Source: Gammaproteobacteria bacterium
Lineage (GTDB): Bacteria; Pseudomonadota; Gammaproteobacteria; Steroidobacterales; Steroidobacteraceae
DNA: 64,000 bases
Assembly (NCBI GenBank): GCA_043769085.1
Contig: JAYVJR010000047.1
Location: forward strand, 10,389-74,388
Direction: 5' to 3'
Under the pieces are notes generated by a model. The model made no database searches and was not told the origin of the DNA. It saw nothing but the letters and a program-made list of their open reading frames with translations. Positions within the stretch are counted from its first letter, which is position 1; every line of letters starts with the position of its first letter. Below are positions 24,181-41,231 of this stretch, one piece after another. Position numbers and translations under genes: made by a program.

Positions 24181-26523
24181 CTATCGAACCACCGGTGCCG
24201 GATCAGGAATCAAGGCAACGACTTTGCCGAATTCCTGCCAGCCATTGCCGATGTCGACAGGTCCCTCACCGAACACTATTGTCGGATTGGTTGCTTGGCC
24301 TAAGTGAAAGTACACCGCAGCATTGAACCCTCTTTGCCCGGCAGCACCTAACGCGTCGCGAATCTTGAAAGCACCTGGTCCTGTGGACGTGTACCCGAGC
24401 GCACCCAAGTCCGCCTTGCCGTAAAGGCCGGTCGCGATATCAAATCCGAGCCAATAGAAAATATCGGCGTCGTCGGTGCGAGTTTCGGCCACCAGTGTAT
24501 CCGCCGCCGCAACCGCGGCTCCGCGTGCCGCCAGATCCATGTTGCGGTTTCGCTCCAATGAAAACGCCACCGCAAACTCATATCCTGACCGTTGCTCCGG
24601 TGCTAACGAGTCATGGATGCGCTGTTTGCCAGGCCCAGGCGCCGTTTGACCCTCTGCGGCAGCTAAGCCAATGTCAAATCCGTCTCGACTAGCAGCCGTC
24701 GATTGCCGGTTACGCAATGCCGTAAATAGCGGATCCGCAGCGGCGATCGAGGGTCCTTTAGCAGCGAGTGTGGCTAACGTCTGAGCGTCAATCGGCACAA
24801 AACTCGCCAGGAACACGCGGCAACGATCCTCAAGACTCGGCGCCGCTGGGCTGTTTCGAGCACGCGCGTTTCGTGCGACATCGCAAATTGACTGCATTGC
24901 CTCCGCGGGACTGGGCGGCGGTTTCGGACCATTCATTACCACCCGCCCGATGCCTCTCGGCGCAGAACTGTTGCCGTCTCTAAACCAGTATAATTTTCCG
25001 TTAGGCACAATGCCTAGAATCACACCGTCACTGTTCGGAACGATTTTGGCGAACGAGTTCCAACCCGAACCGACAAAACGAGGTTCTTGCCATTTGAATT
25101 CGCCCGTGGCGTAACCGTCGTGGCGATAGAACAATAAACTGCCATCTCGGCGAACCGCATAGATGGCGCCCAGACCGGTCGAGAAAACCTCTCTGAAACT
25201 ACCCCAACCGGATCCCACAACCTTGGCAGGTTGCCAACTGCGCATGCCGTGATCTGCGCCGTTATTTCTATACCAGACCAACTTACCGTCATTGGTGATG
25301 CCGTAGACGATGCCCTGGCCGCCCGAAAAGATACGCGAAAATGACCAACCGCTACCCACCTCTACGGGCGCAGTCCAAGCACTGCTGCCGTCGTTAAAAC
25401 CATCATGTCGATACCAGACCAGCTTCCCTTCAGCTGTTAGGGCATAGAGTGTGTTGCCACCCGCGGCAATAATGTCTCGAAAGCTGCCCCATCCGTTACC
25501 CACTTTTCTGGGGCCTTGCCACGCCGTCGAATTGGACTCTTTGCGATACCAGAGCAAATCGCCATTCGGACGAACCGCGTAAATCCAAAGTGGCTGATAG
25601 TTCGGCGGAGTCTGAGCAAATGTGCCAATGAACTGCGAGGGAGGCACGAAAGCACCCAGATAACGATTGATTTCATCCCGCAACGGGGCGACTGGCGCGT
25701 CCGCAAATTGCGTAGTAGATGCAGCCCACGTCCATGAGTCTGACTGAGGACACTCCTTGCCTGGCAAACAAGGACTGAAGGACCTGGCGTGAACACCGAA
25801 AAAAATGTCGCCCGCCACTGTCTTGATCAGAGACGCGCCGCCGCTGTCGCCACCCGCGATGGTCGGACCGCTGGCGGTGGGAAACCATACCAAATGATCG
25901 CCGCCCCGACCGGTCTCCCGGCTTGTATTGAAATTGGCTTCGCGGTAGAGATCGTCGCCGGACGTAGGCATTGCTGTCGCCCCGGCGCCTTGCGCAAACT
26001 GATTGATGCCGCGCCCGTAAGAGGTGACAGACAAAGGCACCATGGTGTTACCACCATAGAGATCCACGTTGTACCCGCCTTCGCGCCCGTTGAAGGGCTC
26101 TGGAACGCGAACAATGGCCATATCCATCGGTCGAAACGAAATGACACGCACTGACTTGCGTACCTGCACACTGGTGGTCCATGTCGCTGTTAGGGTGACA
26201 CTGTCTTCGGCAGTATTAATGAACTGCCCGGGTTTATCCGGGTCTGGGCTATCAATACAGTGAGCCGCAGTGATCACCCAGTTGTTTCGCAGCAGCGTGC
26301 CACTGCAGGAACTTCCGGGTATGCTGACCTTGACTAACCCATATTTCTCTTGATCCGCAGGACTGACCAAGTTTCCCGCCACGAGAGCCTGCGATGTGGA
26401 CCCGGTACGACCTTCCGGGCTTACCTGCGCCTGGCTCAGAGCGCCGAACACCAATGTGGTTGTCGCTATGACGCCGAAAGTCCGCCCGCCAAGTCGCAGC
26501 CGTTTGTTCAAGACCATGTTCAT
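24181..26523 (-). CDS. Secreted S1 (trypsin-like) serine protease fused to a tachylectin-like beta-propeller and an unassigned C-terminal domain
   Basis: Signal peptide. S1 triad (TAAHC, DMAIVRV, GDSGG). Four or five repeats of ...GKLVWYR..G....W.....VGSGW..F. The C-terminal 200 aa are shared with 41928-43922. Confidence 0.85.
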   Translation of the reverse strand: MNMVLNKRLRLGGRTFGVIATTTLVFGALSQAQVSPEGRTGSTSQALVAGNLVSPADQEKYGLVKVSIPGSSCSGTLLRNNWVITAAHCIDSPDPDKPGQFINTAEDSVTLTATWTTSVQVRKSVRVISFRPMDMAIVRVPEPFNGREGGYNVDLYGGNTMVPLSVTSYGRGINQFAQGAGATAMPTSGDDLYREANFNTSRETGRGGDHLVWFPTASGPTIAGGDSGGASLIKTVAGDIFFGVHARSFSPCLPGKECPQSDSWTWAASTTQFADAPVAPLRDEINRYLGAFVPPSQFIGTFAQTPPNYQPLWIYAVRPNGDLLWYRKESNSTAWQGPRKVGNGWGSFRDIIAAGGNTLYALTAEGKLVWYRHDGFNDGSSAWTAPVEVGSGWSFSRIFSGGQGIVYGITNDGKLVWYRNNGADHGMRSWQPAKVVGSGWGSFREVFSTGLGAIYAVRRDGSLLFYRHDGYATGEFKWQEPRFVGSGWNSFAKIVPNSDGVILGIVPNGKLYWFRDGNSSAPRGIGRVVMNGPKPPPSPAEAMQSICDVARNARARNSPAAPSLEDRCRVFLASFVPIDAQTLATLAAKGPSIAAADPLFTALRNRQSTAASRDGFDIGLAAAEGQTAPGPGKQRIHDSLAPEQRSGYEFAVAFSLERNRNMDLAARGAAVAAADTLVAETRTDDADIFYWLGFDIATGLYGKADLGALGYTSTGPGAFKIRDALGAAGQRGFNAAVYFHLGQATNPTIVFGEGPVDIGNGWQEFGKVVALIPDPAPVVR

Positions 26524-26690: not shown

Positions 26691-29531
26691 TCACGGTGCC
26701 GACTCCAATAATGGCAACGCGGCCAACGATTCCGGTGCCTCAAACTGCGGTGTCTGTGGCCCGATACTTCGATCCCGCAAGCGTTCCACCGTGCTGGCCG
26801 CGGCCTCAAACCACTCGCGCACGTTGACGCGGCCGTCCCGATTGCGATCATTGGCCGGCTGCAGGCCTTGCAGCAAGCCGAGCGTAAATAGCCCGTGCCT
26901 GCTGCGCGCATATTCCTGGGACTCCTCGTCGCCGCGCGACGCTAACATGAACCCGATCCGCGATGAGGCGGAGCGTTTCACCAGCGAACGGGGATCAAAA
27001 CGACCTACGACGTTACGTGCCTGGCAGGTATCAACGATCAAAAATCGTCGGCCTGCCGTTTGTCGCAACCGCTCGAAAATTACTGCCCAACCGAGCAGCG
27101 ACGCAGAATCATCCACAACCTTCCCTGCTAACACGGCATCCACGTCCACACTGCGGGCATCGCGCGGTACAAAATAGTAGTTGCCTGCGTCGTCACTGAT
27201 GCCATGTGATGCTAGAAAGACCATCACCGTATCATTGCCACGCACATCGGCGAGGCGTGCAAGTATGCTGCGGATCGCGGCCTGCGTCGGTAGCGTCCCA
27301 AGATCCGACAGTGTCTGCACATGAACCTGGCGAAATCGCCTCGCGCCCCAGCGACGCAGCATCGCGGCCACCTCCTCCGCATCACGAGCTGCGTAGGACA
27401 GCGCCACGCCCGGATCCAACTGGGTAAAATGATTGACGCCCACCGCAAACACGTACAAGTCTCCGGGTTCAATATTGTCGGCTGCAGCAGCAGGCTCGGT
27501 GATCAGTCGCTCCACCAGTCCGAGTGACCGCCCGTTGGAGATCTCGACGCGTATCGTCCGATCGCTGCGCCCTAACGGCAACGGCAATTCGCGCACCAGA
27601 GTCTGCTGATCGCGGCCCGACAATGCGCGCTCCACCGTTCGCGTTTGCGGGATGTCATTGATGTAGACGGTCATGGCCAGCATTGGCAGGCCGCTACTAC
27701 TCGCCGTGAGCAACAGCTTGGCATTGCCACTTGCCACTAGAGTAAGTCGTGGCGGAAGCGGCAGTGTTGCTAACAACCCCGGTAGAGATCGTGACTTAGC
27801 AGCGGCAGAATCCGCTCGCAAGGCGCGCGTGACATCAGCCGGTTGATAAAGATCGTTTTCAAATTGAACCGCGCGGAAATAGTCCGGCCAGGTGTCGAAT
27901 CCATGCGCCCACTGCCAGCCGACGAGTTCATCGCCCAAGGGCGATGACGCATAGCGTCCGGATGGTGTCCAGGCCACCCATTGAGTTAGGCGTCTGCTAA
28001 CAAACAGTGACAGCACTTCCGCACCTGACGAGGCTGCGAACCAACGCACGGTTCCATCCGCCAGTAACGCCACCACCCAGCGACCGTCCGCACTCACGTT
28101 AACCTGCCGGACCGTGGTGCTGGTACGCACCGCCCAGCGTTTTTGGCCCTCGACGGACAGCGCATGCAGCGCCCATTCCGTGCCTGCCACAACCTGCCGG
28201 CCTGCCACATCGATGGCATACGAGTGCACACGCTCCAGTGGTTCCAGCGCTAGCGCACGACCATTGACGCTGAGCGACTCAGCCGAGAATGTCACCGTCA
28301 AATTGGACTGACGTGTCACGGCAGCGCGCAGCGCTGGCTCTTGAGCGCTCTGCGTTGTAAGCAGCAAATGGGCCACATCAAATCTCCATCCTGAGTTGTT
28401 GCCCGGTCGGCGCACGCCGACACCTGTTCCGTCCGCCGTCAAACGCAGTTCCGTGCGGGCATCGAAGTTGTCGACAGCGCCCTCCAGACGCCATCGCGGC
28501 TGCCCGTCATCGGACAGAATGGCTAACACGCCTTGTTCGGATCCGAGCAGCAGTTGCTGCGCCGAGATACTGACCAAGGCGCCAATCCGGCCGGTGGCCG
28601 TAACTAGCGACGGCAATGACCGGCCATCCGCCATGCGCCAGCGAGCAATTACGCTCTCTGAGCCGACGCTCGATTCGCCGGTGGCAAAAAAGGTACGACC
28701 GTCGCCAGACCATGCAACACGGGTCAGCTGGCGAAACCGATCCACCGCAGGCGGGATCAGCTGCCGTTGAACCGCCAGCGTATCGGCTCGCAATATGGTC
28801 ACGCGCGGTGCATCATTGAATCCGATCGCAACCTCCGCGCCGCTGGGTGAAATTGAGAGACCGAATGGCTCGCGACCTGCCAGTCCTGCGACGCTACGCC
28901 CTAACAGCGTGAAATCCGCACCATAGAGACGCACAAACCCGTCCAACGACGCTGTCAGCAACTGTCCTTGCGGCGTGAAATCCAGTTCCAGCAATTTGTC
29001 GCGATAGTCCCGGTCGCTGAATACTAGTCGCCGGTCCTGCAGACGAAACACGCGCAACCCTTCACGGCCCATCAGCCCAACGGCGAGGAAACGGCCATCG
29101 GGCGAGAATTTCAGACTGGCAACGACTTCTTCCAGATCCGGCAGCCGCCCTAACAGCGCGCCGGTCGCGCGATCAACCAGGTAAATGCAGGCGCGATGCT
29201 CGATGTCCCAGCATGTCCAACCGCCGGTCGCAAGCGTGTGCCCGTCCGGGGACAATGCCAATGCATACAGCTGCCCTTGGGCACCGGCCCTCGCCGGTAC
29301 TCTCAGAGTGTCAAGCAAGCGGCCATCGCTCAGCCGCCAACGGCGCAGCGTCTTGTCTTCCGACGCTGACCAAAACTCGCCGTGTGCAGGGTCGGCAACC
29401 AGCGCATGAACAAACGCCGCGTGTCGACCCGCTTCAATTTGTAACAAAGGATCGGACGCCGCCAGCGCCAGCCTCGCCAACAGGCAAAAGAACACCAGCC
29501 AGCAGCGCGACGCGCACACTGCAACGCTCAC
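26691..29531 (-). CDS. Signal-peptide WD40 beta-propeller protein with C-terminal caspase-like (peptidase C14) domain
   Basis: WD40-like repeats (SASEDKTLRRWRL, LALSPDGHTLATGG, LKFSPDGRFLAVG...). The C14 dyad context is VMVFLASHG and FLIVDTCQA. Its GTG start overlaps the TpsB stop (GTGA). Confidence 0.88.
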   Translation of the reverse strand: MSVAVCASRCWLVFFCLLARLALAASDPLLQIEAGRHAAFVHALVADPAHGEFWSASEDKTLRRWRLSDGRLLDTLRVPARAGAQGQLYALALSPDGHTLATGGWTCWDIEHRACIYLVDRATGALLGRLPDLEEVVASLKFSPDGRFLAVGLMGREGLRVFRLQDRRLVFSDRDYRDKLLELDFTPQGQLLTASLDGFVRLYGADFTLLGRSVAGLAGREPFGLSISPSGAEVAIGFNDAPRVTILRADTLAVQRQLIPPAVDRFRQLTRVAWSGDGRTFFATGESSVGSESVIARWRMADGRSLPSLVTATGRIGALVSISAQQLLLGSEQGVLAILSDDGQPRWRLEGAVDNFDARTELRLTADGTGVGVRRPGNNSGWRFDVAHLLLTTQSAQEPALRAAVTRQSNLTVTFSAESLSVNGRALALEPLERVHSYAIDVAGRQVVAGTEWALHALSVEGQKRWAVRTSTTVRQVNVSADGRWVVALLADGTVRWFAASSGAEVLSLFVSRRLTQWVAWTPSGRYASSPLGDELVGWQWAHGFDTWPDYFRAVQFENDLYQPADVTRALRADSAAAKSRSLPGLLATLPLPPRLTLVASGNAKLLLTASSSGLPMLAMTVYINDIPQTRTVERALSGRDQQTLVRELPLPLGRSDRTIRVEISNGRSLGLVERLITEPAAAADNIEPGDLYVFAVGVNHFTQLDPGVALSYAARDAEEVAAMLRRWGARRFRQVHVQTLSDLGTLPTQAAIRSILARLADVRGNDTVMVFLASHGISDDAGNYYFVPRDARSVDVDAVLAGKVVDDSASLLGWAVIFERLRQTAGRRFLIVDTCQARNVVGRFDPRSLVKRSASSRIGFMLASRGDEESQEYARSRHGLFTLGLLQGLQPANDRNRDGRVNVREWFEAAASTVERLRDRSIGPQTPQFEAPESLAALPLLESAP

Positions 29532-31207
29532 AAATTGAATTGCAAACCGACAAAGATCCGCGGCTTGCGATTGCCTTCCGACGCCACCAACTGATCGAGT
29601 GGATCGGCAAATTCAACGAACCCCTGCCAACGTCCGTCGGCGGACGTGAGTCGCATGCCGAGACCCCAGGAGGCCGCTCGATCAAGGGCCGCTTCGTTGA
29701 TGGGATCGTGACGACGGGCCTCGCCCCAATCACCAAATGCATAGGCCGAATACGCGGGACCATTGCGCAGCGGCACAACACTGGCGTAGCGCAGCTCTAT
29801 TTTTACGGCTTTGCCCTGATCTCCGGTCAATTCGGATGCATCATAGCCACGACCAAAGGGCTCGCCGCCGAAAGAAAACAGCTCGGGCGACAGCAGACTA
29901 TCGGAAGTTTTCTGCCATTGTGCCGCCGCTAACACCGACCAACCACCACCTAACGATTGTAATCGGGCGGCGTACAGTGTCATCTTGCTGAATGTGGCAT
30001 TGCCATTGAGCCGCGACAACGGCAATGCCGCGGTACCTGACATACGCGCGCTTAGTATGTCGAGTCCCCGCGTTCCTTCAAGGTCAAGCAGATTGACGCC
30101 ACGTGCCGCGTCGGTCCAGTCGACAGTCAGCCCGATGCTAACCGTGCGTACGCGATCCTGAGAGAGCTCCTCGCCTATCAACTCCGTACGGCCATCAAAC
30201 CCTCTTAGCGCCATGCGCAGAGCGACGTTGCGTGTGCGCGAACGCAGCAGTGGCAGGTTCGCTCCGAGCGTCAGTGCCTGGGCTTCGGTCTTGAGGTCAG
30301 GGCTCGCGAGGTTGGCCGCAATCCCGGGACGCGACTTGAGTGCCAGATATGACACCGAGCCGCTCGCGCCGCGCCCACCCACAGGTAGGCTGTACTGGGC
30401 GCTGCCATACTGCAATTCCCCATGCGGACTGAACCCGCCGCTGAGTTGCAATTGATCCCAATGCCCTAACACGCCGGCCAGAGAGACGTCGGCCAACACG
30501 CGCTGCGGGCCTAACGAGCGACTGTTACGACTGTTATATGCCGCTGTGGTGCGTAGCGCATTGCGTTGAACGTCGATCACGAGCTGCGCCGCCCCCGGCA
30601 TGGACGGCGATGGCAGCAGCGTACCGTGCGCCGTGGATCCGGCGAGATCATTAATCAGCAGCAACTGGCGTTCCAGCACCGCCGCTGTCAATGGTCGTGC
30701 AGCGCGCAGGGCATCGGCGTAACGCTCCAACCGTGAATTGTCCACAGGCATATCGCCGCGAAAAATCACACGATCGATAAATCCTTCAACGGCCAGCAGT
30801 CGCACGTGTCCGGACACTATCTCCTGTGCAGGCACTAATACCTGCGACAACAGATAGCCGTCACGGCGATAACGCGTCGTGAGTGCGTTGGCGAATCTGA
30901 ACAACTCCGCCACGGACATCTCGCGATTCAACAGATCGTGCGCCGCTGCCTGCAATTCTGCCGATGAATACACAGTCGCGCCGTCGAAGGCTATTGACTG
31001 CAACACGAAGCGCAGATTTTGCGCCTCCGGTGGCGCAACTTGCTCAGGAATGGCAGGCAATTGGCTGCGTTGCACCTCGGTCGGCGCGCGCAGTAGCTGC
31101 AATTCTCGTTGTATTTGCCCCGGCTCCAGACCTGCCGGAATGGTTACCTGCGCCACGACCGCGCCAATACTGGCAAAGTATCCCAACCCTAACAACAGAC
31201 ATTTCAC
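29528..31207 (-). CDS. ShlB/FhaC/HecB-family two-partner-secretion transporter (TpsB)
   Basis: Signal peptide, POTRA region (TTRYRRDGYLLSQVLVPAQEI..G.VRLLAVEGFIDRV) and a 16-strand-type barrel ending ...FVGLQFNL. Confidence 0.9.
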   Translation of the reverse strand: MKCLLLGLGYFASIGAVVAQVTIPAGLEPGQIQRELQLLRAPTEVQRSQLPAIPEQVAPPEAQNLRFVLQSIAFDGATVYSSAELQAAAHDLLNREMSVAELFRFANALTTRYRRDGYLLSQVLVPAQEIVSGHVRLLAVEGFIDRVIFRGDMPVDNSRLERYADALRAARPLTAAVLERQLLLINDLAGSTAHGTLLPSPSMPGAAQLVIDVQRNALRTTAAYNSRNSRSLGPQRVLADVSLAGVLGHWDQLQLSGGFSPHGELQYGSAQYSLPVGGRGASGSVSYLALKSRPGIAANLASPDLKTEAQALTLGANLPLLRSRTRNVALRMALRGFDGRTELIGEELSQDRVRTVSIGLTVDWTDAARGVNLLDLEGTRGLDILSARMSGTAALPLSRLNGNATFSKMTLYAARLQSLGGGWSVLAAAQWQKTSDSLLSPELFSFGGEPFGRGYDASELTGDQGKAVKIELRYASVVPLRNGPAYSAYAFGDWGEARRHDPINEAALDRAASWGLGMRLTSADGRWQGFVEFADPLDQLVASEGNRKPRIFVGLQFNL

Positions 31208-31749
31208 GGTGAATTCTCCGCTTGTCGCAATACTTCGACACGACGATTCTGCGATGCCTCGGGCGCGAGACCTGCCGCAGGTTGGCGGCTGCCTAAGCCA
31301 TTAATGATCATCAACCGGCCAGGAACGCCAAGCTCCACCAGTCGATCACGGACCGCTGCGGCGCGGCGCCTGGATAGCTCATCGTTGTAGGCCGGTTGCC
31401 CAAGGGCATCGGTATGACCGACGACTTGAATTTTGGCGGCCGGGTCCAGCGCGAGTATGCCGAGCGCCAGCGCCTGCAGTTGGGCCGTGGATTGTGCAGG
31501 CAACTCAGCCGAGTCGTAGGCAAAACCAACCTGCAGACTCAGCCCGTTCGAATTGCTCGTCGCGACATCAGCTACCCGCCGAATGGATCGTGTCTTCGTC
31601 GCTGGCTTCGGCGGTTGCAATTGTCGCACCACCTCATCGACTTCGAGTCGCTCGTCGGCGCGTACCACCTTGGGCTCCGCCGCGGACGCACCTATCGTGC
31701 GTGCCAGCAACACGATCAAGGACGTGAGGCTAACGACCGCGCGTGTCAT
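31204..31749 (-). CDS. OmpA-family peptidoglycan-binding protein
   Basis: OmpA_C block: VGFAYDSAEL...VVGHTDALGQPAYNDELSRRRAAAVRDRLV...NRRVEV. Start taken at MTRAVVSL; the ORF also allows 31773. Confidence 0.85.
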   Translation of the reverse strand: MTRAVVSLTSLIVLLARTIGASAAEPKVVRADERLEVDEVVRQLQPPKPATKTRSIRRVADVATSNSNGLSLQVGFAYDSAELPAQSTAQLQALALGILALDPAAKIQVVGHTDALGQPAYNDELSRRRAAAVRDRLVELGVPGRLMIINGLGSRQPAAGLAPEASQNRRVEVLRQAENSP

Positions 31750-33784
31750 CGCTGGAGCAACCGTTATCGGCATACGGTGTAGTGCATAGGTAGTCGCTCA
31801 CTCGACCATCGGTTGCATCGCCGTTGGTCGCGGGAGCGATTACGTGCTGGTTATTGGTAAAGACATCCGGACTGGCCCCGGCGACGCTACCGCTGCGTCC
31901 CAGATCCGCTGTGCGTCCGACACCCGGTCCGCCGGCTAACACGGTTGCGGCTGGCCCATTGTCGGTTCTATCACCTGCGGTTGGACGGGTCGACTCCGCG
32001 ACGTTCGGCGACTCGGCTCCGAGCGGCGGATCTCCCGGTGTGGGTGTGGGTGTCGGTGTGGGTGTGGGTGTGGGTGTGGGTGTGGGCGGTGCCGGCGGTG
32101 GTGGTGGTGTCAATACCACCGCGATCGATGTCAAGGGATCGCTCGCACTGCCCGCGAGATTGGTCGGCACCCCGCCACTGGGTCGCACGGTACCGACCGG
32201 AGTTTCAGTCAAAAACGCAAAGACGTTAGGCCCCGGCAGGGAGTTTTCATAGCCGTTGTTCGCATACGCGTGAAATAGCAGCGGCGCCTCCGTACGTCGT
32301 TGCGATAATCCGTCTTCGGTTACATAACTGCGCACCGTTGATCCAGGTGTCGAGTCTGAAATCAGACGTTGTTGTCCTTCGGTCAGTTGATTTTGCGAAT
32401 TGCGCAAATCGATAGACACAGCGGACGCGAGTGACAAAGTCCGTCCGACTATAGCGATGAATCCCGCCGGTTGACTATTCGCGCTGCGTGCAATCAAGTT
32501 GGCGGTGGCTGCCAGCGTTACCTGGCCCGCATCCGATAGCACTTCGATGATGCCAGCCTGCCTGCCAGTGCCCGCGGACACATTGAGCTCACCGCCAACC
32601 GCAGTGCCTTGAGTCGACACGACGCTGACGAAACCGCCCTGACCGCTACCACCACTGGCATCAGCGGCGCACGCCACTGTGCCGCAGGCGCGCACCTGAG
32701 CCCCCGCATCGATCTGCACCAGATCCGTATTGAGCGGTGAGCTACCTAACGGCCAACGGCCGCCGACGCTGATATTGCCGCCGCCACCGCCACCATTGGC
32801 CAACAATTGGGCCGTCGAAGTCAGAGTGACGTTATTACCGACGAGCGCGAGGTCGCCGGCACGATCAGCCGTAGTGACGCCACTCGCATTGAGCGTACCG
32901 CTTACGCGAATACCGCCGGACGCTAGCAATCGGATACTGCCGCGCTGGCCGTTCGATGCGGTCTGCGCGCGCACCACGCCCGTCAGATTAATCGCCTGAT
33001 CCATGACCGCGCTTGCTGCGGGAACAGAGAGCAGCAGAATCCGACCACCATCTGCTAACAACTGACCGCCAACGTCGAGCTGGATTCGGCTCGGGGCGCC
33101 CGTCGTATCAAGAACTGTAGCACTCAGGGAGTCGGGTGTGGCCAGTCGGATCAGACCATCGCCAAACAGATCCAGCGTAAAATAGCGGGCCGATCCCAAA
33201 GTGATTTTTCCCAGCCGCGCGGTGATCGTGCCTGAATTGCGCACCGACGGCGCAACCAGTGCGACCAGCCCGCCGTCTGCGACCGTGATCGTACCAGCAT
33301 TGCTGATCGTGGCCGTGTTAGCCGCTGTTGTTAGTTCGTTAAATGCGTAACGACCCAACGCCGACGCCGGATCCGCCATGAATGCGTCATTACCAATATT
33401 GGCCGTGCTCGCCACAAAACTTGCTGCATCGATTCGTGCGCTATTGCCGATGACGATGCCGTTCGGGTTGACGAGGTAAACCTGGCCATTGGCGCTGAGC
33501 GTGCCTTGCAGCGAAGAAAACTGGCTACCGGTCACTCGATTAAGCAGCGCGGCCTGGGCATTCGGTTGAACAAACAGCACACGCTCAGTCGGCCCGATGT
33601 CAAAGGAGCGCCAGTCGATGACGGCACGCGCACTGGTTTGTGTGACCGTGGTGCTGCCCGGAGTGCCTTGTATGGTTGCGCTCCCAGCGCGGACGACTCC
33701 GTTGACCGGGTCAGCGAACGCCGTTGTCCCGACAACGCCGCTGGCGAGCACCGCCGGAATCAGCGAGCTCCAGCGTCTCGTCAT
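31730..33784 (-). CDS. Short TpsA exoprotein with filamentous-haemagglutinin N-terminal (TPS) domain and a Thr-Pro linker
   Basis: TPS domain motifs (IDWRSFDIG, LNRVTG, LSANGQVYLVNPNGIVIG), Gly-rich beta-helix repeats, then PPPPPAPPTPTPTPTPTPTPTPTPG. No toxin-like C-terminus recognised. Confidence 0.88.
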   Translation of the reverse strand: MTRRWSSLIPAVLASGVVGTTAFADPVNGVVRAGSATIQGTPGSTTVTQTSARAVIDWRSFDIGPTERVLFVQPNAQAALLNRVTGSQFSSLQGTLSANGQVYLVNPNGIVIGNSARIDAASFVASTANIGNDAFMADPASALGRYAFNELTTAANTATISNAGTITVADGGLVALVAPSVRNSGTITARLGKITLGSARYFTLDLFGDGLIRLATPDSLSATVLDTTGAPSRIQLDVGGQLLADGGRILLLSVPAASAVMDQAINLTGVVRAQTASNGQRGSIRLLASGGIRVSGTLNASGVTTADRAGDLALVGNNVTLTSTAQLLANGGGGGGNISVGGRWPLGSSPLNTDLVQIDAGAQVRACGTVACAADASGGSGQGGFVSVVSTQGTAVGGELNVSAGTGRQAGIIEVLSDAGQVTLAATANLIARSANSQPAGFIAIVGRTLSLASAVSIDLRNSQNQLTEGQQRLISDSTPGSTVRSYVTEDGLSQRRTEAPLLFHAYANNGYENSLPGPNVFAFLTETPVGTVRPSGGVPTNLAGSASDPLTSIAVVLTPPPPPAPPTPTPTPTPTPTPTPTPGDPPLGAESPNVAESTRPTAGDRTDNGPAATVLAGGPGVGRTADLGRSGSVAGASPDVFTNNQHVIAPATNGDATDGRVSDYLCTTPYADNGCSSDDTRGR
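32037..32096. repeat. (GGTGTG)n hexanucleotide microsatellite, about 9 units, coding the (Thr-Pro)n linker of TpsA
   Basis: Read directly: gtgtgggtgtgggtgtcggtgtgggtgtgggtgtgggtgtgggtgtggg. In frame, so unit gain or loss keeps the reading frame. Confidence 0.9.
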
Positions 33785-33804
33785 GCCGCGGGTCGCGACA
33801 GCCT

Positions 33805-34923
33805 TCACCGATGTACCAAAGTAATCGTGACCTGACGCGCGGCCAGACTGCCGCTCGCCATTTCAGCGGGCGCAACCGCATCCAGCGCGAAGCTCGTGCC
33901 ATCTTCAACGTCGACTTTGCGTATCGACCGCGTTTTGGTTTTGAGACCGCGCGTTGCCGGGCGACCGCAATTACCGAGATTGAGCGACGCAGGGGTCGGC
34001 ACCGCATTAGGAGCGTTAGGATATTCCGCGTTAGGCATACCAGCGCTACCGACCTTGACGATACTGCGCGTCGCCGTCATCAGGGCCGAGTTTGCACAAG
34101 GCTGCAGCTCCAAAATCAGCACTTCATTGCCCGGTTCGTCTGCAAATTCGTAGGGTCCCAATGATTCAAGACCGCCGCCACCTGACTGCGTGCTATCGAT
34201 TTGTGTCGTCCGACCACGCCCATCGGTATTAAATACGCGGATGAGGCCCGGCAGACTCGGTCGGTAATGCACCATGAAACGCTCGCCGCCGCGAAATGTA
34301 TGATTCTGCGGATCGATCCGTTGACTCACGCCTCCCGGTGACAGCGTATGGATTTCGTAGGCAATCCCCGCATAGACATCGCCATTGTTAGGAAAGCCGA
34401 TGTCTGCTGCGCCGCCGGCAGCGCCCGGCATCGGGTAAGAATCGGTACCGGGATACGAGTCCTGGCCCGGGTAGCCATTGGCGCCAGGGTAGGTGTCCGG
34501 TGCGCCCCCAGGCATGCCCGGTTGGGGTGCTGCCGACGAATCAGGCGCTGATTCGTAGTTGGGATAGGGGGCAGGCATCGGTGCAGTCGCACCAGTCGCA
34601 CTGGGATACGCGAACTCAGCCGAACGTGTTGTTGACTTGCGACCCAGCCATTGGGTAATTGCGCCATTCATACCTTGTGACAAAGAGCTCGCAAGCGCAA
34701 CTCCTGAACTCTGAACAACCGTCGCCAAAGTCGCAGCAAACAGGTCACGCATGCGAAAACGCTGCGGTGAATTTTGGGCGGGCGCCGGAGAATTCGTAGC
34801 GTAGCCAGGGTGTGCGGCGGGATACGCCGGGGTTCCGGGCGACTGTGCACCAGCGATGGTTGTCCCACCAATGCTCAGCATCAGGAGTCCCCAACTTTTC
34901 CAACGGTGATTTCGGCGCGCCAT
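33805..34923 (-). CDS. Secreted Pro/Tyr/Gly-rich protein with DUF4384-like C-terminal domain (tentative)
   Basis: Start MARRNHRWKSWGLLMLSIGG, 7 nt after GAAGGAGA. Low-complexity YPG repeats. The C-terminal beta-rich domain is called DUF4384-like from memory only. Confidence 0.7.
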   Translation of the reverse strand: MARRNHRWKSWGLLMLSIGGTTIAGAQSPGTPAYPAAHPGYATNSPAPAQNSPQRFRMRDLFAATLATVVQSSGVALASSLSQGMNGAITQWLGRKSTTRSAEFAYPSATGATAPMPAPYPNYESAPDSSAAPQPGMPGGAPDTYPGANGYPGQDSYPGTDSYPMPGAAGGAADIGFPNNGDVYAGIAYEIHTLSPGGVSQRIDPQNHTFRGGERFMVHYRPSLPGLIRVFNTDGRGRTTQIDSTQSGGGGLESLGPYEFADEPGNEVLILELQPCANSALMTATRSIVKVGSAGMPNAEYPNAPNAVPTPASLNLGNCGRPATRGLKTKTRSIRKVDVEDGTSFALDAVAPAEMASGSLAARQVTITLVHR

Positions 34924-35079: not shown

Positions 35080-38019
35080 ATGCCGCCTGCTCCTTGGGAT
35101 CGGATTCAGTCCCTGTTCGATGAATTGACCGCACTGCCCGCGGCGGAACGGGCGGTCCGACTGCACGCCCTGCGCAGCGAAGACCCGTCGCTCTGTGCCG
35201 AACTGGAATCTCTGCTGCGCGCCCACGAGGAACCTGGCGGTCCGCTCGATGCGCCGCCCGTTTTCAATATCATTGGTGGCACCGAGGCAACGACCGACGA
35301 CAGGTTAGCGGCCGGCCTGCGAATAGGACCCTATCAGCTGGTGCGGCTGTTAGGAGAAGGCGGGATGGGTTCCGTGTGGCTCGCTGAGCGAGTCGACGGC
35401 CGGTTGAAACGCAGTGTCGCGCTCAAACTGCCCAAGTGGACCTGGACGCTGCGCGATGTGAACACTCGACTGGCGCGCGAGCGCGATATTTTGGCACGCC
35501 TGGAACACGCCGGTATCGCGCGGCTATACGACGCGGGCGTCGATGAGCTGGGCCGTCCGTATCTTGCAATGGAGTACGTACAGGGCGAGCCCATCGATCA
35601 ATACTGCAACTCGCGCGCGCTGACGGTTGTCGAACGCCTGCAACTCGTTCTGCAGGTCGCGCGAGCAGTGGCCTATGCTCATTCCCGCCTGATCGTGCAT
35701 CGCGACTTGAAGCCCAGCAACATCCTGGTGTCGGACGATGGCACAATTCGGTTGCTGGATTTCGGCATTGCCACATTATTGCAGGCGGATGACGATCTGG
35801 CCTCGCGCATCACCCAAGCAGGCAGTCGTGTCTTTACTCTCGACTACGCGGCCCCGGAACAAATTAAAGGCGAGTCGATCGGCACACCGACCGATGTATA
35901 CGCCTTGGGTTGTGTGTTGTATGCACTAGTCGCAGTTGCATCACCCTATCCAATCCCGCGCCGTAGTCCTGCTGCACTGGAGGACGCGATCGTCACGGGC
36001 AATACGCTGTTAGCCAGTGATGCTTGTCAAAACCCGGCGATCGCACGTCAGTTGCGTGGCGACCTGGATGCAATACTTAATAAGGCGATCAAGAAAAACC
36101 CCGAAGATCGGTACGCGTCCATTGATGCGTTCGCCGCTGACCTTACGCGTTTTTTACGCCATGAAACTATTGTCGCCCGGCCCGACAGCCGCTGGTACCG
36201 ATTTAGAAAGTTCGCCCGACGCAATCGTGTGGGCCTTGGTGCGGCTGGAGTTGCAGCCATAGCAGTTTTAGGTGGCGCTGGCGTTTCGTTGTGGCAAGCG
36301 CGCATTGCAACCGCCGAGGCCACACGGGCGAATGCGACCAATGCCTTTGTACTTTCACTGTTCCGTGACGCCAGTCCTTCCAGTGGTGGTGGCGCGGAAC
36401 TACGCGTCGTTGATCTGCTACAGCAGGCACTGCCACGCATCGAGCGCGAGTTTCGCAACGAGCCTGAGCAACAATTAGAGCTGTACCTCACTGTCGGGCT
36501 TAGTCTCAATGAACTGAATTCTTATGCGTCCAGCTTGGCGACGTTTGATCGGACTGCGAAACTGGCGCAGCGTCAACAGCTAACAGGAACAGATGCCGCG
36601 TTGCGCGCGCGCATTGGCGAGGCGAACGCCTTAGTCGCGACCGACAAACTTGATGCAGCCGCCCAGATTTTGGACAGCACTGAGCAGACTCTGCGACAGC
36701 GGCCACCATCGCTGTTGCTCGCCCATCTCTGGTCGACACGGGCTTATTTACATTTGAATCGCAACGATCCCCAAGCGGCCGTTAAATCGGACTCAGCAGC
36801 GACGGACTTAATTAAAAAACTGCTCGGTCCGCAGAATTTGGAATACTGGTTTCAACGTCGCGAGCTGGCTCGTGCGCAATGGCATGCCGATCAATGCGAC
36901 GCTGCCATTGCCAATGCCGACGAAATCCTGACGCAACTGCCTGCCTTACTGGGGTCAGACAGACACCCAGAAATCGCGGTCGTGCGCAGTGTCCGAGCGC
37001 GCTGTCTGTCGGAAACGCAGCGTGTTCAGGAGGCGCGTGCCGAGTTTGAACGCAATGAGCCCTTGATCCGCGCCGCTTTTGGCGCAGGGTCGAAAGACTA
37101 TGCCATTGAGATATTGTCCCACGCAGAGACCGAACGCCGAGCCGGCGCATCGGCGGCGGCCGTCAATCGATTCATACGCGGCAACGCCATTTTGGACGCC
37201 AACCACGTTACCGGCTATACGCGCATGGGGGCCGAAGCTGGACTGACGTTAACATTGTTGCAGAACCGGCAACTCGCGGCGGCGGCCTTGTCGGCCGACA
37301 GGTGGCGTCAATTTGCTATCGACAATTCAGGCCCGAAGGATCGCCAAGTTCGTATTGCGTCTTTTTTTGCCTTGTTTGCCCGAGCCCTCAGCGGCGAGCA
37401 ACCCGGCGCTCGGACACAATTAGAACGCATGCTGCAAATCATGCATGAGCAGCAAGACGGTTTTGTGATGCGCCCCCAAACGTTGTTAGGCTGGTATCAC
37501 GTGTTGCAACGAGCGCCCGATCTGGCTGAACAGGAACTAACGGCAGCGTTACCAGTTCTCGAGGCCCGCGGCGTCAATGATCAAACTTACATCCCGCTGG
37601 CTCATCTCTGGGCCGGTGTCGCCAGTCTCGACAGAGGTGATCTGACTCGAGCGCGAAAATCGTTAGATAGAGCGCTCGCCGAAAACATGAAGATGTATTT
37701 CGAAGTGACGCCGGAACGCGCCGACCTCTGGGTTGCACTGGCGCGCTTGAACTTGCTATCCGGGGACAACGCGGCTGCACTGACATGGTCGTTGCAAGCA
37801 ATTGCTTTTTGGCAGCAGCAAGATCCCAAAAGCCGCTGGTCGGGCGAAGCCGCCTACTGGCACGCCATGGCGCTGGATGCCAACGGTCGCCACAAAGACG
37901 CAGCGCTCAAGCTAAATGATGCGCTGATCTTGTTGCGGCAGTCATCCTTCCCGATAGATCGCAAGTGGACGGCCGAAGCGCAATCGCTCCTGAAGTCCGG
38001 GAAAATGTACAAGCGCTAG
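35080..38019 (+). CDS. Receptor Ser/Thr protein kinase with a single TM helix and extracytoplasmic TPR domain
   Basis: Hanks kinase motifs (GEGGMGSVW, VALK, HRDLKPSNIL, DFGIA, APEQ). TM helix GLGAAGVAAIAVLGGAGVSLW. About 550 aa of TPR-like helices. Confidence 0.92.
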   Translation: MPPAPWDRIQSLFDELTALPAAERAVRLHALRSEDPSLCAELESLLRAHEEPGGPLDAPPVFNIIGGTEATTDDRLAAGLRIGPYQLVRLLGEGGMGSVWLAERVDGRLKRSVALKLPKWTWTLRDVNTRLARERDILARLEHAGIARLYDAGVDELGRPYLAMEYVQGEPIDQYCNSRALTVVERLQLVLQVARAVAYAHSRLIVHRDLKPSNILVSDDGTIRLLDFGIATLLQADDDLASRITQAGSRVFTLDYAAPEQIKGESIGTPTDVYALGCVLYALVAVASPYPIPRRSPAALEDAIVTGNTLLASDACQNPAIARQLRGDLDAILNKAIKKNPEDRYASIDAFAADLTRFLRHETIVARPDSRWYRFRKFARRNRVGLGAAGVAAIAVLGGAGVSLWQARIATAEATRANATNAFVLSLFRDASPSSGGGAELRVVDLLQQALPRIEREFRNEPEQQLELYLTVGLSLNELNSYASSLATFDRTAKLAQRQQLTGTDAALRARIGEANALVATDKLDAAAQILDSTEQTLRQRPPSLLLAHLWSTRAYLHLNRNDPQAAVKSDSAATDLIKKLLGPQNLEYWFQRRELARAQWHADQCDAAIANADEILTQLPALLGSDRHPEIAVVRSVRARCLSETQRVQEARAEFERNEPLIRAAFGAGSKDYAIEILSHAETERRAGASAAAVNRFIRGNAILDANHVTGYTRMGAEAGLTLTLLQNRQLAAAALSADRWRQFAIDNSGPKDRQVRIASFFALFARALSGEQPGARTQLERMLQIMHEQQDGFVMRPQTLLGWYHVLQRAPDLAEQELTAALPVLEARGVNDQTYIPLAHLWAGVASLDRGDLTRARKSLDRALAENMKMYFEVTPERADLWVALARLNLLSGDNAAALTWSLQAIAFWQQQDPKSRWSGEAAYWHAMALDANGRHKDAALKLNDALILLRQSSFPIDRKWTAEAQSLLKSGKMYKR

Positions 38020-38116: not shown

Positions 38117-41100
38117 TCAATCCAGTTGTTCAGGGATCTGGCGCATTTTCGTCAAGTCCGCGTTAGGCAACATCGCTTGTTTCTGCGCCCGCCGCAGCGG
38201 CTCGAGGTACTGCCTGCCGAGCTGTGAGTGTTGGCGTGCAATTGCATTGGCATCAATAACCAGTCGTCTCGCGTCCTCGATCCGCCCGGCTTCTGCAAGT
38301 GCTTCTGCAAGCGCCACGCTGGCCTGCAGAACAAGGGGACTTTTTCGGGACAAGTGGGCCCGCCGCCAATCGAGCGCTGTTCGCAGAATGGGCACTGCTA
38401 GATCGGCGCGACGTTGATGCGTGTAGAGCCGACCAAGGAGAACCATACGCTCATACTCGAGCATCTGGAAAAAAGCGGCTTCATTCGCGCCTATTATCGC
38501 CAGCGAGGGTGTTTGGAGCAGCGGCGCGGCAGCGAAGAAGTCAGTATTTTCTATCATAGCTCGAGCGCGTTGTATGCGAAGACTTTGCGCTAGATGCTTG
38601 TCCCGCCATGCCGTAGGCTCCCTGACTGCAGCTTCCTGGGCGGCTTTTTCTGCTGTGTCAATCGTGGCAATCGATTCCTCGATAGCCCCTTGAGCCAATA
38701 GGTTTTCGGCTCGAAAAAGCAGTAGATGCGATGTCAATACTGGTTGCCCTACTTTGTTGGAAATCTCTTCGGCTTGAGCCAGCGCCGAATCGGCTTCTTT
38801 GAAGCGACCCAGCATAGTGAGTTGGGGCGCCATAGCTAACAACATGTTAGCATGTTGTTTGGTATTTGGTCTTGTCTTTTCGCGCACAGAGATCGCACGC
38901 CTGCTGAGTTTTAGTGCCGCGTCTGGTTCACCCCAGAGAAACAAGGCTCTGCCCAGGTCCGTTCTGATTGTTGGCAAATGGAATGACTCATTGTCGCCGC
39001 TCTTGGCCACTGCGAGCGCCTCAGCACTGCGCAACATGTCGATAGCTTGACGGAACTTGGATACGACCCGCAGGAACCCGCCGTAACGAAGTTGTGTTTG
39101 TAGCGTATCGACATGGTCGGGGCCGTTGATCCTCCGTGCAATCTCAAGCCCTCTGCGGTAATTCTGTTCAGCAGGCACCTCCATCCACAGGGAGCGCTGT
39201 GCGTCAGCCAGCATCACAATGTTTTGAACGCGAAAAGCTTCCGGCGTACCAAGTCTTTCCTGCGTTTTTACCGCCAAGCGATACATTTGTTCCGACAAAT
39301 TGTGGTGCAAAGCGTCGCTTTCGGCGAGGCCGGCTCCAAGCAGGGCGTTGGCATAGTCCGGATCGTTAGGATAGCGATCCCGGAACAGCGCCACTGCCCG
39401 GTGCACGAGGAATAGCGCCTGCTTGAGATCCGTGCTGCGCCAGTACTCGCCAAGCCGGATATCCAGTCGTGCTCGATCCAGACTAACAAGATCATTCCGT
39501 GACTTCAGTAACGCGTCCGCCTCAGACAGTGGACCCATCGCGTTCTTCCAGCCTTCGGCGTCATAAAGCGCACCACCATATTTTTGAAGTGCGTCGATCA
39601 CGCGCGGATCATCGCGAGCAAAACTGCGCTTAGCCAGATCCAGACGACTCTTAAACAGGATGACGCTGGTATCGATAGCACCCATTTCCGAATAGAGAGA
39701 TCCGACCGTATTTAGAAGATCGTCATGGGTGACTGGATCGGATGTCTTCATGGATATCAGACGCTGAGCCGCGCGATCAAGTAGTTGCAGCGCCGTGGTG
39801 TTCTGTGCTTTCAGAGGGTCAACTTGCTGGCGGCTGTTCGAATTAAAAATGTCGAGCAGAAAATCTTTCACAAACGCCGCTTTCGTGGCCTCTGCGTTAG
39901 CAATGCGCGTTTGCGCCTCCGCGCGGCGTGATTGCTGCCCGGCCTGATCTGCCTGCCAAATAGCAGTGGCCAGACCCACTGCCAGAGACACAAAAACCAG
40001 ACAAGCGGCGACCACGGCCCAACGATAGCGCCGCAAAAAAGTGCCGAGGACGTACATTCCCACCCGTTCGCGCGCTGCGACCGGCATATGCTGTTGGTGA
40101 CTAACGAGGTCCTGTCGCAATTCATCGACCGTTGCATAGCGATGCGCCGGCTCTTTGCGCAGGCACTTCGCAACGATCGCATCCAGATCTCCTTGCAGCA
40201 GGCGCGCTGCAACCGGCGGCGCATCCCTGTCACGCGCAACTCGGCTGGGTGCCGGTGGTACGTCGTGAACAATTAGACGCACCATGCGTGATAGCGCCAT
40301 GCCCGCACTCGCCCAGGGACGGCGATCTGTTAGCAACTCGAACAGCAGCACACCAAGTGCGTAGACGTCTGTCGCTGTAGTTACCAACTCGCCGGTCAAC
40401 TGCTCTGGCGCTGCATAATCAGGCGTGAAGGGTGCTCGGGTTAGATCACCCTGATGCCAATTCTCCGGATCCAGTTGTTTGGCAATACCGAAATCAAGCA
40501 GTTTTACGCGGCCCTCAGGCGTCACAAGGATGTTCCCAGACTTCAGGTCACGATGAACAATCAGATTGCGGTGCGCATAGGCAACGACTTCGCAGACCTG
40601 AGAGAAAAGTGTCAGGCGTTCTTCCAAGTTTGAGCTGCGTGCGCGACAATGCTCGATTAACGGCACGCCAGCCACATATTCAACAACGGCGTACGGGCGT
40701 CCATCCGTCGCGAGCCCGCCGTCGAGCAGCCGTGCGATGCCCGCATGATCGAGTCGCGCAAGAATTTGCCGCTCAACATTAAAACGCGCCACCTGGCTCG
40801 CCGCCTCTGGTCGCAGCAACTTGATGGCCACCTGCTGTTCGAACGCGCCATCGGCTCGATGAGCCAGGTACACATCACCGGACCCGCCATGACCGATCAA
40901 TTCGCCGATTGCCCAAGTACCAATGCGAGTACCTGCGGCAAGCCGCGGCGTGCCATCCGTGGAATCGACTCCGAACTCGGGTGGCGAATCGAGCGGGCCT
41001 GTTGTTGTACCATGCGCCGTTAGCAGCGAGCGCAACTCCGCATGCAGTGGTGCATCGGCACCGCAAGCGCGAGCCAGGAAGACACTGCGCTGCGACTCGG

Positions 41101-41158
41101 GCAACTCAATGGCGCCGGCGAACAATGCTTCAATTCGCTGCCAACGATCCTGTTCCAT
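38117..41158 (-). CDS. Receptor Ser/Thr protein kinase with TM helix and TPR domain (paralog of 35080-38019)
   Basis: GHGGSGDVY, VAIK, HRDLKSGNIL, DFGIA, APEQ. TM helix AVVAACLVFVSLAVGLATAIW. Start at MEQDRWQRIEALF parallels the paralog N-terminus. 73 nt downstream of the sigma gene. Confidence 0.92.
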   Translation of the reverse strand: MEQDRWQRIEALFAGAIELPESQRSVFLARACGADAPLHAELRSLLTAHGTTTGPLDSPPEFGVDSTDGTPRLAAGTRIGTWAIGELIGHGGSGDVYLAHRADGAFEQQVAIKLLRPEAASQVARFNVERQILARLDHAGIARLLDGGLATDGRPYAVVEYVAGVPLIEHCRARSSNLEERLTLFSQVCEVVAYAHRNLIVHRDLKSGNILVTPEGRVKLLDFGIAKQLDPENWHQGDLTRAPFTPDYAAPEQLTGELVTTATDVYALGVLLFELLTDRRPWASAGMALSRMVRLIVHDVPPAPSRVARDRDAPPVAARLLQGDLDAIVAKCLRKEPAHRYATVDELRQDLVSHQQHMPVAARERVGMYVLGTFLRRYRWAVVAACLVFVSLAVGLATAIWQADQAGQQSRRAEAQTRIANAEATKAAFVKDFLLDIFNSNSRQQVDPLKAQNTTALQLLDRAAQRLISMKTSDPVTHDDLLNTVGSLYSEMGAIDTSVILFKSRLDLAKRSFARDDPRVIDALQKYGGALYDAEGWKNAMGPLSEADALLKSRNDLVSLDRARLDIRLGEYWRSTDLKQALFLVHRAVALFRDRYPNDPDYANALLGAGLAESDALHHNLSEQMYRLAVKTQERLGTPEAFRVQNIVMLADAQRSLWMEVPAEQNYRRGLEIARRINGPDHVDTLQTQLRYGGFLRVVSKFRQAIDMLRSAEALAVAKSGDNESFHLPTIRTDLGRALFLWGEPDAALKLSRRAISVREKTRPNTKQHANMLLAMAPQLTMLGRFKEADSALAQAEEISNKVGQPVLTSHLLLFRAENLLAQGAIEESIATIDTAEKAAQEAAVREPTAWRDKHLAQSLRIQRARAMIENTDFFAAAPLLQTPSLAIIGANEAAFFQMLEYERMVLLGRLYTHQRRADLAVPILRTALDWRRAHLSRKSPLVLQASVALAEALAEAGRIEDARRLVIDANAIARQHSQLGRQYLEPLRRAQKQAMLPNADLTKMRQIPEQLD

Positions 41159-41231
41159 TTTTGATCCTCTGCGGGGCATGTCATCGGGACTGCGAAAATC
41201 CTGGCGCACCATACCTGCAACGGTCGGATAT

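Follow-up and report, generated by a model that had tools for sequence, protein, structure and literature searches.

We analyzed a 64,000-nt stretch of DNA, referred to here as the window (positions 10,389 to 74,388 of contig JAYVJR010000047.1, assembly GCA_043769085.1), from a gammaproteobacterium of the family Steroidobacteraceae, and focused on a gene for a protein that joins WD40-type beta-propellers to a caspase-like domain (hereafter the WD40-caspase). A first-pass annotation of the window had described this gene as a GTG-initiated open reading frame (ORF) of 946 amino acids (aa) on the minus strand at positions 26691 to 29531, and that ORF is present, with its GTG at 29531 and another in-frame GTG at 29519 that would give 942 aa. 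Four minus-strand genes precede it in the direction of transcription. The nearest (29528 to 31207) encodes a TpsB transporter with a POTRA_2 domain, a ShlB barrel (69.5 and 74.2 bits, respectively, in Pfam/NCBIfam searches) and, in its translation, an L6-type GRGY motif. Before it lie the genes for an exported, OmpA-like peptidoglycan-binding protein (31204 to 31773; the public call starts at 31749), which is optional in relatives, and for a short TpsA of 692 aa (31730 to 33808) with a signal peptide, a TPS domain carrying NPNGI (TPS, 96.1 bits; TIGR01901, 80.7 bits), a beta-helix, a PT-rich linker, and a conserved C-terminal tail. The first gene in the row (33805 to 34923) encodes a 372-aa exported protein, hyp372. 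A TpsB with POTRA and Omp85/ShlB domains adjoining a TpsA with a TPS domain is what defines two-partner secretion (TPS, type Vb), and the Pfam domains bear out the identities first given to the TpsB, OmpA-like, and TpsA neighbors. On checking the sequence, the GTGA overlaps that had been reported between the TpsB stop and the caspase start and between the OmpA-like stop and the TpsB start were found at 29528 to 29531 and 31204 to 31207. By coordinates, a third GTGA (33805 to 33808) links hyp372 and tpsA, and the OmpA-like gene as publicly called overlaps the end of tpsA by 20 nt. Because of these overlaps, we conclude that the genes for hyp372, TpsA, the OmpA-like protein, TpsB, and the WD40-caspase form a single, tightly packed operon.

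The public gene calls begin the caspase at the second GTG (P0001, 942 aa), which leaves an 8-nt gap to tpsB in place of the overlap; for this reason an exact-sequence look-up of the 946-aa product among public proteins returned no match. The GTG that overlaps the TpsB TGA is kept in five relatives of about 50% identity (loci L003, L005, L006, L007, and L046), and none of the other in-frame starts listed for L003, L005, and L007 gives a complete signal peptide. Another relative, L008, has a 1-nt ATG overlap between the two genes. Since the overlapping GTG is both conserved and the sole start with a full signal peptide, the evidence favors a start at 29531, with probable translational coupling to TpsB. 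The first-pass annotation had gone on to read a fixed stoichiometry into this arrangement, which overstates the case, as translational coupling is no proof of fixed stoichiometry. Promoter and terminator scans gave nothing above shuffled expectation, and a k-mer comparison of the sequences upstream of four operons found no common k-mer.

The protein opens with a Sec-type signal peptide, aa 1 to 24 (29460 to 29531, minus strand), reading MSVAVCASRCWLVFFCLLARLALA↓AS, in which n-, h-, and c-regions and an AxA-type site (...ARLALA↓AS) can be judged from the sequence. The AlphaFold2 (AF2) model shows this hydrophobic N terminus as a lone helix at aa 2 to 24. The export signal claimed at first is thus not only present but conserved across the family, and because nearly all of 54 homologues start with n-h-AxA signal peptides, export is predicted to be a trait of the WD40-caspases as a whole. 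The other products of the operon likewise carry N-terminal signal sequences. Pfam, AF2, and Foldseek agree that a WD40-type region follows, consisting of two tandem propellers at aa ~28 to 553 (27873 to 29450, minus strand): PF00400 scores 51.3 bits (cut-off 27) alongside several other propeller families over aa 33 to 520, and the full-length AF2 model, built from 98 homologues with a mean predicted local distance difference test (pLDDT) score of 92.4, has about 14 four-stranded blades over aa 28 to 553. Foldseek searches with that model matched tandem-propeller proteins only (best E=6e-28). A short helical linker then leads to an immunoglobulin-like (Ig-like) beta-sandwich at aa 595 to 678 (27498 to 27749, minus strand), assigned from the AF2 secondary-structure pattern only, and the model ends in an alpha/beta domain at aa 690 to 946. 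The module of Ig-like and caspase domains defines a family of modest size, with 140 clusters at 50% identity at E<=1e-30 and 2,595 at E<=1e-10.

The alpha/beta domain (26694 to 27464, minus strand) is assigned to Peptidase_C14 by Pfam, structure comparison, and profile search. PF00656 matches aa 697 to 932 over profile positions 7 to 225 of 233 (E=1.6e-10; 41.5 bits, cut-off 21.4). A separate AF2 model of aa 686 to 946 reached a pLDDT of 92.9, and Foldseek placed the MALT1 paracaspase at the top of its PDB matches (E=7.8e-13, TM 0.65 to 0.72), with the Geobacter caspase-like protein GSU0716, AtMC9, Yca1, and then caspases-3/7/9 among the further matches. A profile of 46 caspase domains searched against PDB sequences recovered Yca1 (3.5e-8) and AtMC4 (1.9e-7) as well as GSU0716 and MALT1; a single-sequence PDB search had GPI transamidase as its sole, weak match (E=0.48). 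The putative catalytic residues are His776 (codon 27204 to 27206, minus strand; context LASHG) and Cys836 (codon 27024 to 27026, minus strand; context DTCQA), the latter preceded at -2 by Asp834 in the metacaspase-type D-x-C arrangement. No exchange of His776, Asp834, or Cys836 is seen among 54 or 98 aligned homologues (25 to 51% identity), and the profile alignment sets DTC on the metacaspase DSC, with the cysteine on that of DSCHSG, and RDA on NDA. The proposal of a C14 fold with a His/Cys dyad therefore stands, with the dyad intact, and the protein is classed on these matches as a Peptidase C14 member of the metacaspase/paracaspase type.

Predicted specificity follows from the surroundings of the dyad. 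The six residues D717, D767, H776, D834, C836, and E873 read DDHDCE in 45 of the 46 domains and DDHDCD in the remaining one, so that the acidic residues D834, D717, and E873, which we take from the MALT1 and TbMCA2 structures to form the S1 pocket, are conserved in all 46 with a single E-to-D change. An acidic S1 pocket leads us to predict cleavage after Arg or Lys at P1 and not after Asp. Passages of PMC6426788 describe orthocaspases as cutting after basic residues. The possibility that the WD40-caspase belongs to a defense system was considered and rejected, as model scores fell far below cut-off: the NCBIfam model caspase_w_EACC1 gave 42.6 bits against a cut-off of 140, and PADLOC, run on the operon, returned for the caspase only a marginal HEAT-ARM_XIII match (E=1.3e-4) with no passing stretch. 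The same PADLOC run gave generic MotB/ZorB matches for the OmpA-like protein, generic kinase similarities, and none for TpsB, TpsA, or hyp372.

Shortly after the catalytic cysteine lies a loop that AF2 models with low confidence (pLDDT 53 to 66 over aa 841 to 860) and that contains KRSASS (26961 to 26978, minus strand). The pattern (S/A)L.KRSA(S/A)S is present in 18 of 18 TPS-linked caspases; outside this set it occurs in L041 alone, and L022 has the variant KKSLTS. Most other caspase clades carry an unrelated loop of the ...NELASAENG... type. Because the motif is confined in this way to the TPS-linked clade, the difference suggests clade-specific regulation or autoprocessing, and KR↓S, at K852-R853↓S854, would be a plausible autoprocessing site for an Arg-specific enzyme.

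To place the window among its relatives, one genome per species was scanned, which gave at least 459 loci; the best 80 of these at least 459 were taken, and neighbors were found with phmmer by comparing the proteins of the window with six-frame ORFs of each locus. TpsB and/or TpsA lies beside the caspase gene in 30 of 85 loci, and two loci (L014 and L033) have additional TpsA C-terminal fragments at a contig edge. At 37% identity and above, essentially all relatives whose flanks are long enough have the link to TPS, as do some at 32 to 35% (L020, L032, L064, and L081), with hosts in the Gamma-, Beta-, and Deltaproteobacteria, Planctomycetes, and Acidobacteriota. L032 comes from a cultured organism, Parahaliea maris HSLHS9. 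The first-pass annotation had asked whether WD40-C14 genes generally adjoin ShlB-family genes; they do throughout the clade of about 37% identity and above, but not among more distant relatives. Two gene orders recur. In type A, found in the gammaproteobacterial relatives of the window, the order is hyp-TpsA(~690 aa)-[OmpA]-TpsB-caspase or TpsA-hyp-TpsB-caspase, with genes for a sigma factor of the extracytoplasmic function (ECF) type and a tetratricopeptide repeat (TPR) kinase placed divergently. In type B, found in Beta- and Deltaproteobacteria, Planctomycetes, and Acidobacteriota, the order is TpsB-TpsA(1,200-2,400 aa)-caspase. Because the linkage survives a change in gene order and spans phyla, it indicates a functional tie between the caspase and TPS. 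What is conserved is a three-gene core that is previously undescribed: TpsB, a TpsA with a C-terminal tag, and an exported WD40-caspase.

Several loci in the scan depart from these two orders. WD40-caspase paralogues occur in arrays with no TPS genes nearby, four in a Planctomycetaceae metagenome-assembled genome (MAG; L068, 6548 to 18695) and two each in L042 (9038 to 15761) and L031 (9710 to 14337). In three Polaromonas MAGs (L010, 3212 to 6169; L011, 8038 to 10979; L021, 10376 to 13333) and in L019 (966 to 4304), the WD40-caspase gene adjoins genes for an ECF sigma factor (regions 2 and 4), a possible anti-sigma factor, a small caspase-like protein that stands on its own, and an OmpA-like protein; in Polaromonas, two tandem proteins of about 400 to 470 aa stand in place of a recognizable TpsA, after a divergent TpsB.

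The tag of the core was found by comparing TpsAs. In the window it is VLAGGPGVGRTADLGRSGSVAGASPDVF, aa 623 to 650 of 692 (31859 to 31942, minus strand), and it is common to TpsAs beside WD40-caspases in both gene orders. Its consensus is h-h-h-x-G-G-[RP]-G-x-A-x-x-x-D-[LFM]-G-[RNQ], with the core GG[PR]GxAxxxD[LF]G[RN]; the corresponding residues in the window are VLAGGPGVGRTADLGRSG, with which the conserved tail (aa 623 to 650) opens. The motif lies 0 to 53 residues from the C terminus and is preceded by a proline-rich and then an acidic low-complexity linker. It is found in about 22 of 26 caspase-linked TpsAs, again in both orders, and these proteins are otherwise divergent once past the TPS domain and about 100 further residues (beyond about residue 400). 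A degenerate DNA pattern of the motif matched 19 places in a metagenome collection, 13 of which are TpsA C termini; all 13 of these tails adjoin hyp372, OmpA, or TpsB, and each of the four contigs that are long enough (4/4) carries a WD40-caspase. On a long-read metagenome contig (L105, 9001 to 17914), a motif-bearing TpsA again occurs together with a WD40-caspase. There, TpsA, TpsB, and the WD40-caspase are each split into several called genes, which are probably assembly frameshifts and not pseudogenes; such splits account for many of the 'short TpsA' entries in the protein collection. A TPS locus of another kind was seen in Robbsia sp. (L107, 7086 to 17263; JAPMXC010000001.1), where one TpsB gene precedes a tandem row of five short genes for TpsA-like proteins (429 to 673 aa); this locus adjoins a flagellar export operon and has neither a protease partner nor the motif.

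Taken together, these observations lead us to propose that the WD40-caspase is a dedicated third component of one TPS subfamily: an exported, most likely periplasmic, metacaspase-type protease that probably acts on the C-terminal tail of TpsA. We see the chances of this proposal as about evenly balanced. The WD40-caspase would be exported by Sec and retained in the periplasm, and its cognate TpsA would thread through TpsB with the N terminus first. The proline-rich linker and C-terminal tail of TpsA would then be the last parts to stay periplasmic, after the precedent of FhaB as given in passages of PMC4542190 and PMC8263021. At this stage the protease would cut the tail after a basic residue, for which the motif offers GR↓S, and would so control maturation, retention, or release of the surface beta-helix. 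The propellers may bind the TpsA tail itself or, by analogy with BamB, the POTRA domains of TpsB. In the lineage of the window, the adjoining pair of kinase and ECF sigma factor probably controls the operon or responds to it. Processing of TpsA was one of three roles suggested by the first-pass annotation, and it gains support from the conserved motif, with the tail as its presumed substrate. The WD40-caspase may instead act on other envelope targets, as another of the three roles would have it. A bolder version of the proposal, which we consider unlikely, is that some type Vb systems are 'three-partner' systems in which a TpsB-docked periplasmic metacaspase reads the TpsA C-terminal sorting tag as a PorU- or sortase-like switch for maturation or anchoring; cleavage might then be triggered at the surface beta-helix and relayed to the kinase and ECF sigma factor.

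Several observations weigh against a TpsA-cutting protease. Two linked TpsAs (L017 and L024) lack a clear motif, and in some members the motif Arg is replaced by Asn, Gln, or Leu. The TpsAs of L012 and L015 end at ...DLGRR, where cleavage would remove almost nothing, and because of these two proteins the motif may be a docking or binding tag and not a scissile site. None of the retrieved TPS-domain homologues carries the motif, but as most of these are truncated proteins they make a weak control of specificity. Finally, among WD40-caspases below about 33% identity, which have the same architecture, a Pfam scan of neighbors found no recurrent partner except caspase paralogues. Because these distant proteins lack TPS neighbors, we take the ancestral role of the protease to have been independent of TPS.

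The genes that flank the operon raise a different possibility. Upstream and divergent from it is a gene for a Ser/Thr kinase that passes the membrane once and has a large, predicted periplasmic TPR domain (35080 to 38019, plus strand), which is kept in type A relatives, and beyond this lie genes for a second, paralogous Ser/Thr kinase with a TPR domain (38117 to 41212, minus strand) and an ECF sigma factor (PF07638; 41232 to 41822, minus strand). In both, a single transmembrane helix follows the kinase domain, and the C-terminal TPR region of about 560 to 600 aa is predicted to be periplasmic. Divergent from the sigma factor gene is one for a 664-aa protein with a lamin-tail domain (PF00932; 41928 to 43922, plus strand). 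Within the operon, hyp372 matched no known family. It has a signal peptide, an amphipathic helix, and a low-complexity region rich in YP, and its conserved C-terminal domain, about 190 aa long, contains two conserved cysteines. DUF4384 (PF14326), which we take to be often fused to caspases, has no match in the hyp372 of the window and weak matches in 4 of 9 orthologues (best E=0.018).

With these neighbors, the WD40-caspase could instead be a signaling protease of envelope sensing, which would cut the kinase TPR domain, hyp372, or the OmpA-like protein and so switch the kinase and ECF sigma factor, with TPS as its output or sensor. Besides the two kinases and the sigma factor flanking the operon in the window, the same pairing is found in L003, L005, L006, L046, and L105, and the Polaromonas and L019 WD40-caspases described above adjoin ECF sigma factors. 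Metacaspase operons with sigma-70 factors have been reported (PMC3501461), and the pair would fit the known classes of ECF factors that are regulated by kinases (PMC7826278). However, within 10 kb of the type B loci phmmer found no kinase or ECF gene except in L032. The invariant partners are TpsB and TpsA, and no shared promoter motif was found upstream of the operons. We therefore regard the signaling role as rather improbable. Because the pair is absent from most type B loci, it appears to be a lineage-specific layer of regulation and not part of the core.

A small chance is also left for a general exported degradative or effector protease, used for nutrients, envelope quality control, or attack on other cells and merely coexpressed with a TPS adhesin. 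The many distant relatives that share the architecture with no TPS neighbors, sometimes in tandem arrays, speak for it. So does the gene that lies 167 nt downstream of the caspase (24181 to 26523, minus strand), which encodes an exported 780-aa protein with a trypsin domain and tachylectin repeats. Bacterial metacaspases have been proposed to degrade proteins outside the cell (PMC4933709), and gingipains and clostripain are examples of clan-CD proteases that are secreted (PMC3482391). A protease that was only coexpressed, however, would leave unexplained why the linkage to TPS persists through a change in gene order and across phyla, why the 4-nt coupling to TpsB is conserved, and why the clade has its own caspase loop and TpsA tail. 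Similar trypsin-tachylectin genes follow the caspase in L005, L006, and L092, and L003 has a gene with Exo_endo_phos and tachylectin domains nearby; the trypsin-tachylectin gene may belong to the module as an additional, optional part, although the association is uncertain.

Another role suggested in the first pass, that of a second TpsB substrate, which would bring the WD40-caspase to the cell surface, seems very improbable. It would suit the type A loci, where the caspase gene comes straight after tpsB and is translationally coupled to that gene, but in type B loci the caspase gene follows tpsA and not tpsB. The protein has no TPS or hemagglutinin-activity match in Pfam/NCBIfam, and its first propeller begins in the AF2 model at about residue 28, immediately after the signal peptide. 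Passage through the pore would require both compact propellers to be unfolded, with no targeting domain to guide them; for want of a TPS domain, this role was rejected. There is equally little to recommend a purely structural accessory of the Omp85-family transporter TpsB for which catalysis is irrelevant: periplasmic propellers do bind POTRA domains in the BAM complex, and one homologue carries the JGI label BamB, but the dyad and all S1 residues are invariant in 46 to 98 sequences down to about 25% identity, which argues for selection for catalysis.

We therefore return to the WD40-caspase as a probable TpsA-directed protease. Little is known of what caspase homologues do in prokaryotes, where they are usually framed in terms of cell death or anti-phage conflict. 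Here, by contrast, a whole clade of exported caspases is genetically locked to a secretion system. For this clade the C-terminal tail of TpsA is a concrete candidate substrate, and the cleavage chemistry is predicted to be Arg or Lys at P1, so that the question is directly testable. If the proposal is true, an operon-encoded dedicated protease and a C-terminal cargo signal would be added to a pathway defined by two partners, and a three-partner switch, if it exists, would give an exported bacterial homologue of C14 caspases its first defined physiological substrate and role. Clan-CD proteases that are exported were already known, as were proteases that process TpsAs; of the module that combines them we found no description in the literature searched.

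The first-pass annotation had called an envelope-located caspase encoded with a TPS pair unusual. Exported prokaryotic caspase homologues were in fact already noted in 2012 (PMC3501461, PMC3482391), and the survey among these reports found WD40 to be the commonest partner domain and OmpA and sigma factors among the neighbors (PMC3501461). Within the full-text library searched, we found no paper that connects a TPS system with a protease of the C14 or CHAT type. The closest enzymes by fold are metacaspases, orthocaspases, and MALT1 (MEROPS C14B, clan CD), which share the fold, the His/Cys dyad, D-x-C, and the acidic S1 residues. Those that have been characterized are cytoplasmic and linked to stress or cell-death pathways, whereas the WD40-caspase has a signal peptide, carries its protease domain on the C-terminal side of two propellers and an Ig-like domain, and is genetically tied to a type Vb pair.

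Among TPS systems, the nearest precedent is FhaB/FhaC of Bordetella, in which, according to passages of PMC4542190 and PMC8263021, the C-terminal part of the TpsA is removed in trans during secretion by DegP, CtpA, and SphB1. The enzymes that act on FhaB are, however, of the serine protease class and are encoded apart from the TPS pair, and the prodomain of FhaB measures about 1,200 aa. In the present module the candidate signal is a tail of about 30 to 70 aa, and the caspase-fold enzyme is encoded in the operon. In its overall logic the module also resembles PorU, the C-terminal signal peptidase/sortase of type IX secretion, which like GPI transamidase belongs to clan CD: in both cases a clan-CD protease is paired with an outer membrane translocon, and the TpsA motif would be the counterpart of the conserved C-terminal signal on the cargo. 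PorU serves a different secretion system, in which the C-terminal domain of the cargo is a folded Ig-like domain of about 80 aa, and the structural neighbors of the WD40-caspase found with Foldseek are C14 enzymes and not those of the C25 or C13 families. If the propellers do dock on TpsB, the arrangement would recall BamB and BamA, where a periplasmic beta-propeller is the partner of a POTRA protein of the Omp85 family, but BamB is a single 8-bladed lipoprotein with no enzyme domain.

In polymorphic toxins, the caspase-like 'releasing peptidases' (Zhang et al. 2012, PMC3482391) are similar in that an exported caspase fold was proposed to process secreted or surface proteins. They differ in acting in cis, as internal toxin domains, and in being listed there for T2SS, T7SS, PVC, and TcdB routes, while here the protease is a separate protein and Pfam detects no toxin domain in TpsA. 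A parallel in gene organization comes from Oleomonas cavernae (L106; QYUK01000011.1, 16257 to 19220), where TpsB and TpsA are followed by a 987-aa TPR-CHAT lipoprotein with the signal MTGRHLLVLAALLLAGC. Its scaffold is TPR and not WD40, its protease domain is CHAT and not C14, and its TpsA tail is different and without the ADLGR motif. As a parallel to the module described here, it suggests that TPS combined with an exported caspase-fold protease is a recurrent design.

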